Sequence record: CP102852.1
Direction: 5' to 3' (one strand)
Origin: a plasmid
DNA: 43,639 nucleotides
Shown one piece after another: positions 13,797 to 15,231 of this stretch (the stretch's first letter is position 1; every line of letters begins with the position of its first letter). The position numbers and the translations under genes were made by a program. The notes beneath the pieces are model-generated. The model saw only the letters and a program-made list of their open reading frames with translations. It was not told where the DNA came from and searched no databases.

Positions 13797-14075
13797 ATGT
13801 CTAATCAATATGAAAAATTAGTTAAACAACAAGCGCGTTTAAAACAAAAAATTGAGCGGGAAGATTTTAAATTACGGCAATCTAAATACTATGAAAATCG
13901 GCAAGCCCGCAAGGCTCGTTCTCGCCGATTAATTCAAAAAGGGGCTTTGCTCGAAAAATACTTTCAAGCTGATAACCTCTCGGTCGAACAAACCGAAGAA
14001 CTTTTAAAAATATTTGCTAATTACGTTAATGCCCATAAACCAGATAAATTAAAAAACGATCAACCTAATAACTAG
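13797..14075 (+). CDS. small coiled-coil protein, paralogous to the preceding ORF; possibly a mobilization accessory protein
   Basis: 92 aa. Its KQQARLKQKIERED...LSVEQTEELLKIF region parallels the LSNDQIKLLAKQF region of the neighbouring ORF. Confidence 0.45.
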   Translation: MSNQYEKLVKQQARLKQKIEREDFKLRQSKYYENRQARKARSRRLIQKGALLEKYFQADNLSVEQTEELLKIFANYVNAHKPDKLKNDQPNN

Positions 14076-14721
14076 GCCGATCGTTTTTATTTTCTGGATC
14101 ATTTTTAGGCTTTACTTCTGGGTTTTGATCTGCAAAATTTTGTAACTGCTTTTGCACCTTTTCTGGATAAGTAATATTTTGGTTTATCCAAGGAAAATGC
14201 CTCAAATCGTTCTTAAAAACTTGTCCCTTCTCTCTTGCATAAACAGAGGTAAACTTTTCGCTATTATCATAGATCATGACCTTATCAGATTTAAAGGCCA
14301 CTAATGGCAAATTATGTTTGGATTCCTGATAACGTTTCTTGATCGTTGCTACTGGAACACCGTGCCCACCTTTTTGTACCCGTTCGTTGACCCTTTGGAT
14401 AGCTAAATTTTCATCTCGCGAAGCAACATATAATAAAGTCACTTCAAAGCCATTTTTGTGAGCTTTGCCTCTACCTGCCAGTGTTGTTTCTACGTGAATA
14501 CTTTGCTGGCGATCTAAAGCATAGTGTAGTTGTTTGATTTCTTCTTTCATGGCTTTTAAGTTGTCACTATCTTTATGCCAATCGCCACCCATTTGTCTTA
14601 AAAGTTCATCAGCGTTTATCCGTTTTGTTTTGTCAAACAAGATGGGAAATGTATCGTATAGCGTACTTTTTCCTGCTCCGTTAATACCAGCAACAATAAT
14701 ATATTGGGGTTTATCTATCAA
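14065..14721 (-). CDS. P-loop kinase of the zeta-toxin / AAA_33 family (putative toxin)
   Basis: 218 aa. It has a Walker A motif IVAGINGAGKST at residues 9-20 and a later ETTLAGRGK segment resembling the zeta-toxin IEGTGR region. Its start overlaps the stop of the upstream small ORF (ATGA). Confidence 0.5.
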   Translation of the reverse strand: MIDKPQYIIVAGINGAGKSTLYDTFPILFDKTKRINADELLRQMGGDWHKDSDNLKAMKEEIKQLHYALDRQQSIHVETTLAGRGKAHKNGFEVTLLYVASRDENLAIQRVNERVQKGGHGVPVATIKKRYQESKHNLPLVAFKSDKVMIYDNSEKFTSVYAREKGQVFKNDLRHFPWINQNITYPEKVQKQLQNFADQNPEVKPKNDPENKNDRPSY

Positions 14722-14912
14722 CGGACAAAGTCCTTTCGCTTAATAACCTCATCTTGCCTTTTATCTAAAAAGTAGGTATATAAAGCGTCATATACTTTGC
14801 GCTTTTCTGGATCTGGCTCATGTAATGACTTATCAAGTAAATCTTTTAAATCAGTTTCTTTGGCAATTTCAAAAAAGTCATTAATTGTGATTGTATCTTT
14901 CATGTTCATCAC
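14718..14912 (-). CDS. small acidic protein, a candidate epsilon-like antitoxin for the downstream kinase
   Basis: 64 aa. It is translationally coupled to the kinase gene by a 4-nt overlap. Confidence 0.4.
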   Translation of the reverse strand: MMNMKDTITINDFFEIAKETDLKDLLDKSLHEPDPEKRKVYDALYTYFLDKRQDEVIKRKDFVR

Positions 14913-14949
14913 ACTTTCAAGTTATTAATTTATTTAATCTGATAAGCCA

Positions 14950-15231
14950 TTAGTCCTCATCTGGATCATTGAGCCAATCAGCGACTTCTTTAGCGTCTTT
15001 GAACTCTGTTACTGGTGTCTCTTTGGTCGCCTTTAAAAAGCGTAAATTAGCTCTTTCTTCTTCGCTTAAAGACACATTAAAAGGTAAGGCACCATTAGCA
15101 ACAATCCGCTTATAAAACATATTGATCGCGGTAGTTGGGTTTAGACCTAACTGGCTTAAAACGGCTTCGGTATCATCGGCCAAATCTTTATCAATCTTGA
15201 CTTGGACCCGTTTCTTTTCCTTAACTGCCAT
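14950..15231 (-). CDS. RelB/DinJ-family ribbon-helix-helix protein (antitoxin or repressor)
   Basis: VQVKIDKDLADDTEAVLSQLGLNPTTAINMFYKRIVANGALPF parallels the DinJ N-terminal RHH (RARIDEDLK..A..VL...GLT.S..V...L..VA....LPF). No RelE/YafQ partner follows it. Confidence 0.65.
   Translation of the reverse strand: MAVKEKKRVQVKIDKDLADDTEAVLSQLGLNPTTAINMFYKRIVANGALPFNVSLSEEERANLRFLKATKETPVTEFKDAKEVADWLNDPDED

Follow-up and report, generated by a model that had tools for sequence, protein, structure and literature searches.

The plasmid sequence CP102852.1 was analyzed as one stretch of 43,639 nucleotides, here called the window, and this study concerns a cassette at positions 14065-15231 that consists of relB, a small open reading frame (ORF) and the gene of a zeta-family P-loop kinase. 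Overall, we regard the cassette as a probable chimeric type II toxin-antitoxin operon of three genes, in which the small-ORF/kinase pair has replaced the body of a PemK-annotated toxin behind relB. A reading made from the sequence alone (the sequence-only reading) had described three co-oriented genes at these positions and had suggested a hybrid of the omega-epsilon-zeta kind. All three genes indeed lie on the minus strand, and the hybrid origin of the cassette could be traced by alignment with the PemK-type cassette of a related plasmid (L070). We infer that the kinase is toxic, that the small ORF product neutralizes it, that RelB represses the operon and that the cassette stabilizes the plasmid.

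We propose a putative mechanism on this basis. The core module is a pair, also widespread on its own, of a predicted three-helix protein of about 60 aa and the zeta-family kinase coupled to it. The small protein would bind and block the kinase; once freed, the kinase would stop growth through phosphorylation of an essential metabolite that contains a nucleotide. The pair recombined into an existing relB-pemK-like operon and displaced its PemK/MazF-annotated toxin body, leaving relB, the promoter/operator, the first codons of the old toxin and a C-terminal tail. A single transcript would run from the relB promoter to a hairpin at 14052-14088. RelB, having lost its cognate toxin, would act as a DNA-binding autorepressor, which is the job of omega for epsilon-zeta, and the small protein would neutralize.

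Exchange of the toxin body behind relB

The first gene, relB (14950-15231, minus strand), encodes a 93-aa ribbon-helix-helix (RHH) protein. Its RelB/DinJ-like character, recognized in the sequence-only reading, was confirmed by TIGR02384 RelB_DinJ (6.8e-18, residues 7-89) and Pfam RelB PF04221 (7.9e-10), both over the curated cut-offs, and by the PDB sequence matches RelB 4FXE and DinJ 4Q2U; RelB/DinJ, and not Omega_Repress, is the family of this protein. No RelE/YafQ/ParE-fold toxin adjoins relB, the next genes being the small ORF and the kinase gene. The earlier statement that RelB lacks a RelE/YafQ partner holds for its immediate neighbours, but a complete DinJ-YafQ pair is present elsewhere in the window (18705-19302).

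Searches with tblastn revealed what follows relB in other Lactobacillaceae plasmids. In L069 and L070, a RelB of 95-97% identity is followed, with an 11-nt overlap, by a gene encoding 168-187 aa, which RefSeq names mRNA interferase PemK and in whose product an RP(V/I)L motif was noted by eye. In L. reuteri and E. faecium, where the RelB orthologues have 41-46% identity, the partner is a PemK/MazF-family toxin of 107-112 aa. The toxin type that belongs to this RelB is accordingly PemK/MazF-annotated and not RelE/YafQ. Read off the identity bands of three separate searches, the plasmids with this RelB at at least 80% identity number about 431, and the PemK-annotated gene was found in about 358 and the small ORF in about 106.

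Alignment of the window DNA with L070 located both ends of the exchanged segment. The flanks, which comprise the promoter and relB at one end and a DUF3847-like gene at the other, are about 97% identical by estimate. On the left, the breakpoint closely follows the relB stop, where the window keeps ATG AGG ACT AAT GGC TTA TCA GAT TAA (14934-14960, minus strand; MRTNGLSD and a stop), the remnant of the 5' end of the replaced toxin gene. The PemK-annotated gene begins ATGAGGACTAATGACTTA (MRTNDLV...), overlapping the relB stop, and the homology of the window to L070 ends a few bases later. The right junction falls within the kinase's C-terminal tail (14068-14163, minus strand; ...VQKQLQNFADQNPEVKPKNDPENKNDRPSY), whose last 31 or so codons (KVQKQLQNFADQNPEVKPKNDPENKNDRPSY) share homology with the PemK-annotated protein's end (RIQKQLKDFAKHNPEIKPKNNPENKNDRPSY). 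By tblastn, the tail has 69% identity to the PemK-like tail and 78% identity to the tail of a Fic-family protein, and it is absent from the chromosomal kinase homologues and from the PemK homologues of Enterococcus and L. reuteri. Together, the L070 flanks, the retained pemK-like start and the homologous tails indicate that the cassette is a relB-pemK-like operon whose toxin body was exchanged for the small-ORF/kinase pair.

The arrangement is not a chance juxtaposition, since the 2-kb region around the cassette matches 771 Lactobacillaceae plasmids in PLSDB (at least 80% of the region length is covered in 77 of the 771); its identity to the L. gasseri plasmids pHL70_1 and NZ_CP146881 is 99.9%. 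Some kinase cassettes with an identical small ORF begin with a RelB allele of 87-88% identity, so recombination is still under way in the region. Kinase-type and PemK-type cassettes do not differ in the C-terminal 27 residues of RelB. The relB-pemK-like parent operon and the donor module each survive in relatives, which gives an uncommon insight into the formation of a three-component system. A literature search found no description of the replacement event or of the small-ORF family.

A remote branch of the zeta family

The third gene (14065-14721, minus strand) has a TTG start and encodes a 218-aa P-loop kinase, the putative toxin, with the P-loop IVAGINGAGKST and the ETTLAGRGK segment as they had been read. 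A zeta/AAA_33-type kinase had been proposed. The zeta part is upheld by a match to Pfam Zeta_toxin PF06414 (2.1e-10, 40.8 bits against a cut-off of 22.3), in which residues 4-164 align with positions 15-197 of the 199-position profile, but the match to AAA_33 stayed under the cut-off. Among the matches listed, nearly all of 120 kinase homologues carry PF06414.

The common form of the kinase has 226 aa, and the 218-aa form of the window is a deletion allele. An AlphaFold model of the common form, with 44 homologues in the alignment, reached a pLDDT of 89.5. Its top Foldseek matches in the PDB were zeta 1GVN_B (E 1.5e-7, TM 0.63), zeta-UNAG 3Q8X (UNAG, UDP-N-acetylglucosamine), PezT 2P5T and AvrRxo1 4Z8Q (TM 0.65), and not a housekeeping nucleotide kinase. 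The kinase domains of Clostridium thermocellum polynucleotide kinase and PFK-2 score almost as well as zeta. PDB sequence searches, with the kinase alone or with a 44-sequence profile, returned P-loop-level matches only (with the profile, Pnkp1 0.03 and PezT 0.2); the kinase is therefore a remote branch of the zeta family.

Across 44 homologues of 40-97% identity, the invariant residues (226-aa numbering) are GxNGxGKS (K18, S19), R34, N36, D38, E39, W48, H76, E78, T79, T80, L81, R118, R122, G126-G127-H128 and R138, and every one of them is kept in the window kinase. The Walker A Lys/Ser, the Asp after strand 2 (20 residues past the Lys) and the lid Arg residues that mark the zeta family are all present; their equivalence to zeta D67 and R158 was assigned by motif position, without superposition. 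The kinase is thus a zeta-family phosphotransferase in both family and fold. The GTxR motif with which zeta binds UNAG (G117-T121) was not found: in all homologues, the corresponding strand reads H-x-E-T-T-L-(A/S)-G, without an Arg at +4. Because GTxR is replaced by ETTL(A/S)G, the kinase probably does not bind its substrate as zeta binds UNAG. Family, fold and context suggest that the kinase is toxic. A kinase relative of 46% identity adjoins a type IV coupling protein and has a 60-aa ORF upstream.

The small ORF as the conserved partner of the kinase

The second gene is a small ORF on the minus strand that begins either at an ATG (14718-14903, 61 aa) or at a GTG (14718-14912, 64 aa). The sequence-only reading had described a 64-aa acidic ORF. 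The ORF is present, but the 61-aa start (ATG 14903) is favoured by the spacing of the ribosome-binding site and by the RefSeq annotation of a near-identical plasmid, and the product is only mildly acidic (pI 5.3; 15 D+E against 13 K+R). The overlap with the kinase gene proved to be TTGA rather than the ATGA reported earlier: the kinase TTG occupies 14721-14719 and the small ORF stop TGA 14720-14718. AAAGGA lies 9 nt upstream of the TTG, and the kinase is translationally coupled to the small ORF stop.

The small protein is predicted to fold into three helices (pLDDT 87). It had no Pfam, NCBIfam or PDB sequence match, 30 members of its family had no Pfam antitoxin match, and none of the 30 matched Epsilon_antitox at E<=1. 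In a Foldseek search with its model, the best E was 4.3, and epsilon and PezA were not among the fold matches at E<=10, a result that speaks only against an obvious likeness to these two.

To follow the pairing, we used 66 loci with kinase relatives, one genome per species, from which the upstream ORFs were extracted by script. An ORF of 54-70 aa lies upstream of the kinase gene in Lactobacillaceae chromosomes, Streptococcus hominis, Rothia (Actinomycetota) and about twenty Lachnospiraceae and Clostridia, at -4 to +32 nt from the kinase start (or the start of the tblastn match). These ORFs have in common the C-terminal motif F[YF]..[LM]..[YF].L..[KR]Q..[VI]I....F. A hidden Markov model (HMM) based on ten such ORFs of Lactobacillaceae, Streptococcus and Rothia was searched against the 2685 ORFs of the fetched loci; its 34 matches all lie directly upstream of a kinase gene or a kinase remnant. 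Within 1.84 billion representative proteins, the family falls into 36 clusters at 50% identity. RelB is absent at the inspected chromosomal pairs (Lactobacillaceae, Streptococcus, Rothia) and also from plasmid L078, where a 63% identical kinase sits in the same repA/DUF3847/relaxase slot with the small ORF present. RelB is therefore dispensable to the small-ORF/kinase pair.

These comparisons indicate that the conserved partner of the kinase is the small ORF and not RelB. The suggestion that RelB might neutralize the kinase thus found no evidence, since the partner conserved across two phyla is the small ORF and diverged versions lack RelB. The small ORF product would then be the antitoxin of the kinase and would neutralize it by binding. 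In L057, the small-ORF domain is fused to a Phd/YefM DNA-binding domain (PF02604, 2e-6), which occupies the N-terminus of the 118-aa protein, the small-ORF domain being its C-terminal half. Kinases at a greater distance, with 35% identity or less, have upstream genes of the Phd/YefM type, and the gene upstream in L038 looks like an RHH gene by eye only, without a Pfam match. Modular exchange of DNA-binding and neutralizing parts is typical of type II antitoxins (PMC4803016). Additionally, the kinase is truncated or a remnant beside an intact small ORF at L014, L043, L065 and L073, a pattern typical of toxins.

A 2023 survey of PezT and zeta proteins noted that many zeta-like toxins have no known antitoxin and are unstudied (PMC10532202). 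The small-ORF family, which has no Pfam entry and occurs in at least two phyla, is a concrete candidate partner for such orphan toxins. Papers on the genomes of lactobacilli have called the cassette genes 'incomplete' toxin-antitoxin systems, with a zeta lacking its antitoxin and a RelB lacking its toxin (PMC6662855). For hundreds of plasmids from food and probiotic lactobacilli, in which the stability of plasmids is of importance, this annotation is due for correction; the cassette is a probable plasmid-addiction module.

Homologues of the small ORF also occur apart from kinases. Two small L. plantarum plasmids carry an orphan 70-aa homologue (42-49% identity) upstream of a replication gene with no kinase nearby (L072 1479-1691, L074 2429-2641). 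In PLSDB, 586 records have a small-ORF match under 60% identity, including hundreds of small plasmids at 40-50%, some of them clearly kinase-free. The orphans could be anti-addiction antitoxins or could have another function. A public metagenome contains P0144 (128 aa), in which a natural in-frame deletion fuses RelB 1-81 to small ORF 18-61; the joint is a shared K-E-T codon stretch, and the result is laid out as a canonical two-domain antitoxin, RHH plus neutralizing domain. In P0147 (471 aa), seven tandem HEAT-like repeats match the helix-turn-helix hairpin at the centre of the small ORF (..L.EPDPEKRKVY.AL..) with an E of 1.1e-10, which is probably a motif-level resemblance rather than homology.

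Promoter, operator-like repeats and transcription unit

The promoter of relB (15264-15292, minus strand; TTGATA, 17 nt, TATAAT) agrees with 11 of 12 consensus positions and is the best site that a consensus scan found in 13700-15600. Its second hexamer ends 32 nt before the relB ATG, and its sequence is nearly identical in the PemK-type cassette L070. A terminator scan found nothing terminator-like between this promoter and a hairpin terminator at 14088-14052 (minus strand; 17-pair stem, 3-nt loop, T run). The hairpin lies across the kinase stop and encodes the last kinase residues, KNDRPSY and the stop; the last eight codons of the tail form its stem. Given a single promoter and no terminator-like site before 14088, relB, the small ORF and the kinase gene look like one transcription unit from the relB promoter to the hairpin, with co-transcription predicted from this anatomy.

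Operator-like repeats overlap the promoter (15257-15285, minus strand): TACTCA at 15283-15278 and TAGTA at 15272-15268 and at 15261-15257. Three GGTA at an exact 11-nt spacing (GGTA-N7-GGTA-N7-GGTA) occur once in the window against 0.01 expected, an expectation that is post hoc because the pattern was defined only after being seen. TACTCA/TGAGTA half-sites also precede relB orthologues of 41-88% identity in L077, L083, L. reuteri (L084) and E. faecium (L071). They form the inverted repeats TACTCA-N15-TGAGTA in L077 and L083, ATACTCA-N5-TGAGTGT in L. reuteri and TGAGTATA-T-TATACTCA in E. faecium. RelB/DinJ proteins bind their own promoters. The conservation of the half-sites upstream of diverged relB orthologues supports such binding by the RelB studied here, which is a probable autorepressor of the cassette operon. 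We also considered RelB as a part of repA copy control and rejected this role: the conserved block stops just upstream of the relB promoter and accompanies different replicons.

Comparison with known systems

The omega RHH repressor of the omega-epsilon-zeta system of plasmid pSM19035 controls copy-number and partition promoters besides its own operon's. The resemblance of the cassette to this system, proposed in the sequence-only reading, holds for gene order and architecture but not for family membership or ancestry. Both have an RHH protein, a small helical protein and a Zeta_toxin kinase in the same order on a plasmid of Gram-positive bacteria. In omega-epsilon-zeta, the regulator is separate from the neutralizer (PMC4803016), and we suggest the same division of labour for the cassette. 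However, the RHH protein of the cassette is RelB/DinJ and not Omega_Repress, and its small ORF has no detectable homology to epsilon; all that the two have in common is a small three-helix product. The kinase core is about 190 aa compared with 287 aa for zeta, has 13% identity to it in the structural alignment and lacks GTxR. The trio, moreover, arose through cassette replacement. An omega-like global regulon received no support, as the operator-like array has no further copy in the 43.6-kb window, a weak test since the array is a putative operator. Because both the epsilon and the omega criteria fail, the cassette is not a member of the omega-epsilon-zeta family; its likeness is convergent architecture from cassette replacement.

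Within the literature found, the experimentally studied relative closest in type is PezT-Mtb (Rv0366c, 197 aa), which requires K15, D36 and R116 for growth inhibition (PMC6362051). It too is a short zeta-family kinase, in which the P-loop Lys/Ser is followed after about 20 residues by an Asp and the lid contains an Arg. PezT-Mtb lacks the zeta GTxR UNAG motif, as the cassette kinase does, and its partner is neither epsilon nor PezA (PMC6362051, PMC10532202). The cassette residues K18, D38 and R118/R122 were matched to K15, D36 and R116 by motif position, without direct alignment. The antitoxin PezA-Mtb (Rv0367c) is one protein with an RHH and a neutralizing domain, whereas the cassette has separate genes of different origins.

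The RelB-PemK/MazF pairs of Enterococcus and Limosilactobacillus plasmids and of the Lactobacillaceae sister cassette are alike in their RelB (41-97% identity) and in having the same promoter and half-sites, and the sister cassette occupies the same plasmid slot as the window cassette. In contrast to the window, which keeps the first eight codons and a related tail, their toxin gene follows relB with the 11-nt overlap. Similar to the cassette, paaR-paaA-parE has a dedicated regulator gene before a small antitoxin without a DNA-binding domain and then a toxin (PMC4803016); however, its proteins belong to unrelated families, and nothing there points to an origin by toxin replacement.

Alternative explanations

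Several observations weigh against the explanation that we prefer. The PemK label of the displaced toxin rests on RefSeq and was left unconfirmed by Pfam, NCBIfam and PDB sequence searches. The identical RelB C-terminus may mean that RelB still binds a toxin and does not act as a regulator alone. The small ORF is without detectable similarity to epsilon, PezA or any known antitoxin. Given that a homologue precedes a Fic gene in L076 and that hundreds of plasmids with homologues are kinase-free, it may have a kinase-independent function. The eight-residue deletion may have inactivated or attenuated this copy of the kinase. In full-text searches of the literature, no experiment on the cassette or on the small-ORF/kinase family was found.

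The deletion raises the possibility that the window cassette is a decayed relic, with a killed or weakened kinase, that persists through its linkage to repA and mobQ; we think this somewhat unlikely. Compared with the common 226-aa allele, the window kinase lacks eight residues, KAQLNLID (24 nt, in frame). Full-length alleles have CAAAGCTCA (9 nt) twice, 24 nt apart, on either side of the lost segment, and a single copy is left in the window (14459-14467, minus strand), which points to replication slippage. It takes 8 of the 12 residues of helix 86-97 (226-aa model), a buried connecting helix between the ETTLAG strand and the following strand, including the nearly invariant I92, and toxin decay is common in the family, as the four remnant loci above attest. 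However, the deletion leaves the frame and all catalytic motifs intact, and two or three kinase relatives have 2-aa gaps at this spot. The 218-aa allele is also found on the L. gasseri plasmids H1 and H2 and in Levilactobacillus paucivorans L004, and protein cluster P0005 has 41 members. Its presence in several hosts shows that it is not a sequencing error, and together with the 41-member cluster this would be unexpected for a freshly dead gene. An unlikely reading, in our view, concerns RelB instead, which may be retained as an anti-addiction or immunity factor that neutralizes the PemK-like toxins of co-resident or incoming sister-cassette plasmids and which would only donate its promoter to the pair. 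The near-identical RelB holds the antitoxin position of the PemK-annotated cassette, which is about three times as frequent, and its unchanged C-terminal 27 residues are the toxin-binding region of RelB/DinJ proteins. Lactobacillaceae strains often have several plasmids bearing the slot, and RelB was found on two plasmids of one strain (PMC6662855). Nevertheless, the C-terminal identity perhaps reflects mere recent recombination, and immunity does not exclude autoregulation, given the promoter binding of RelB/DinJ proteins and the conserved operator-like half-sites.

Two further readings question the toxin or its purpose. That the kinase is a benign small-molecule or polynucleotide kinase with the small ORF product as a regulatory or chaperone subunit seems highly unlikely to us. 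The closeness of the polynucleotide kinase and PFK-2 domains to zeta in the fold search, the rank of Pnkp1 above PezT in the PDB profile search and the fact that the GTxR motif for UNAG binding is not conserved would fit such a protein. However, the upstream partners of the kinase are swapped among small helical, Phd/YefM-type and, by eye, RHH proteins, with one Phd fusion, which resembles toxin-antitoxin systems and not metabolic enzymes. The kinase genes also reside on plasmids and conjugative elements and degrade while the small ORF stays, and the short relative PezT-Mtb inhibits growth (PMC6362051). Finally, it is improbable that the module chiefly serves abortive-infection phage defence, or mobile elements in competing with one another, instead of post-segregational killing. 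Many type II toxin-antitoxin systems on mobile elements serve phage defence (PMC10532202), and the two-gene pair is also chromosomal, where plasmid stabilization is irrelevant. However, a PADLOC scan gave weak P-loop matches only and no meaningful match to a defence model, and the window copy lies within the replication, partition and mobilization backbone of the plasmid.

The shared C-terminal tail and the plasmid slot

A tail of about 33 aa, ..[IV]QKQL..FA..NPE[IV]KPKN.PENKNDRPSY, is common to the PemK/MazF-annotated protein, the zeta-like kinase and the Fic-family protein, and these three unrelated toxin types occupy the same plasmid slot, from repA to the DUF3847-like and mobQ genes. Besides the window copy, tails were located at L069 3170-3278, L070 3230-3335, L075 3001-3108, L076 3001-3120 and L078 4580-4681. 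Codon comparisons revealed non-synonymous differences that equal or exceed the synonymous ones, and stop codons interrupt the tail at two loci (Fic in L076, kinase in pEB01-2). A strong claim of protein-level selection on the tail was therefore dropped, and the tail may be no more than a homology arm that serves cassette exchange on the right-hand side.

A broader proposal is that the repA-DUF3847/mobQ region is a dedicated toxin-exchange slot, the tail a functional module common to plasmid toxins, and the small ORF a new antitoxin family for short non-UNAG zeta-like kinases; taken as a whole, we regard it as doubtful. On this proposal, unrelated toxin domains are exchanged in the slot, each joined in frame to the common tail, and the tail might be a degradation tag or a coupling signal to the neighbouring relaxase/transfer machinery. 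The Bartonella Fic toxin VbhT, for comparison, carries a BID domain and leaves the cell via a conjugative type IV secretion system.

The L. gasseri plasmid pEB01-2 (L085; NZ_CP008840, complement 761-1450) carries a 93% identical cassette with a full-length kinase core whose tail ends at a stop, KVQKQL-stop; the PLSDB gene table lists no kinase there. Fic genes lie in the slot at L075 2287-3108 and L076 (NZ_CP035561) 2302-3042, and in L076 a 65-aa small-ORF homologue (2054-2251) precedes the Fic gene in place of a kinase. The slot Fic protein has an N-terminal motif like the SxxxEG inhibitory helix (SARFEG) and a degenerate active site without the His (QIFWDGNKR).

Neighbouring genes

The window cassette sits in the replication, partition and mobilization backbone of a mobilizable Lactobacillus plasmid. 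On one side, it is flanked by repA (15491-16639), a RepA_N-type initiator gene. The other, convergent flank consists of the DUF3847-like gene (13797-14075, plus strand), which has the hairpin terminator in common with the cassette, followed by a 75-aa ORF and mobQ.

The separate RelB/DinJ-YafQ pair lies 3.5 kb away from the cassette and adjoins a ParA gene (17787-18578, minus strand). It comprises RelB/DinJ (18705-18992, plus strand) and YafQ (18994-19302, plus strand; PF15738 YafQ_toxin 3.5e-20), the only YafQ of the window. The RelB of this pair has only 25% identity to the cassette RelB, over the N-terminal 44 aa. Collinearity of the window with pHL70_1 was considered and rejected, since a RelE/ParE pair is annotated there and tblastn shows DinJ-YafQ in the window instead. 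Within repA, at about 16000-16200 (minus strand), tandem repeats of about 54 nt encode SLATSGISKIESPHDFV three times, and these are probably the iterons of an origin located within the gene.

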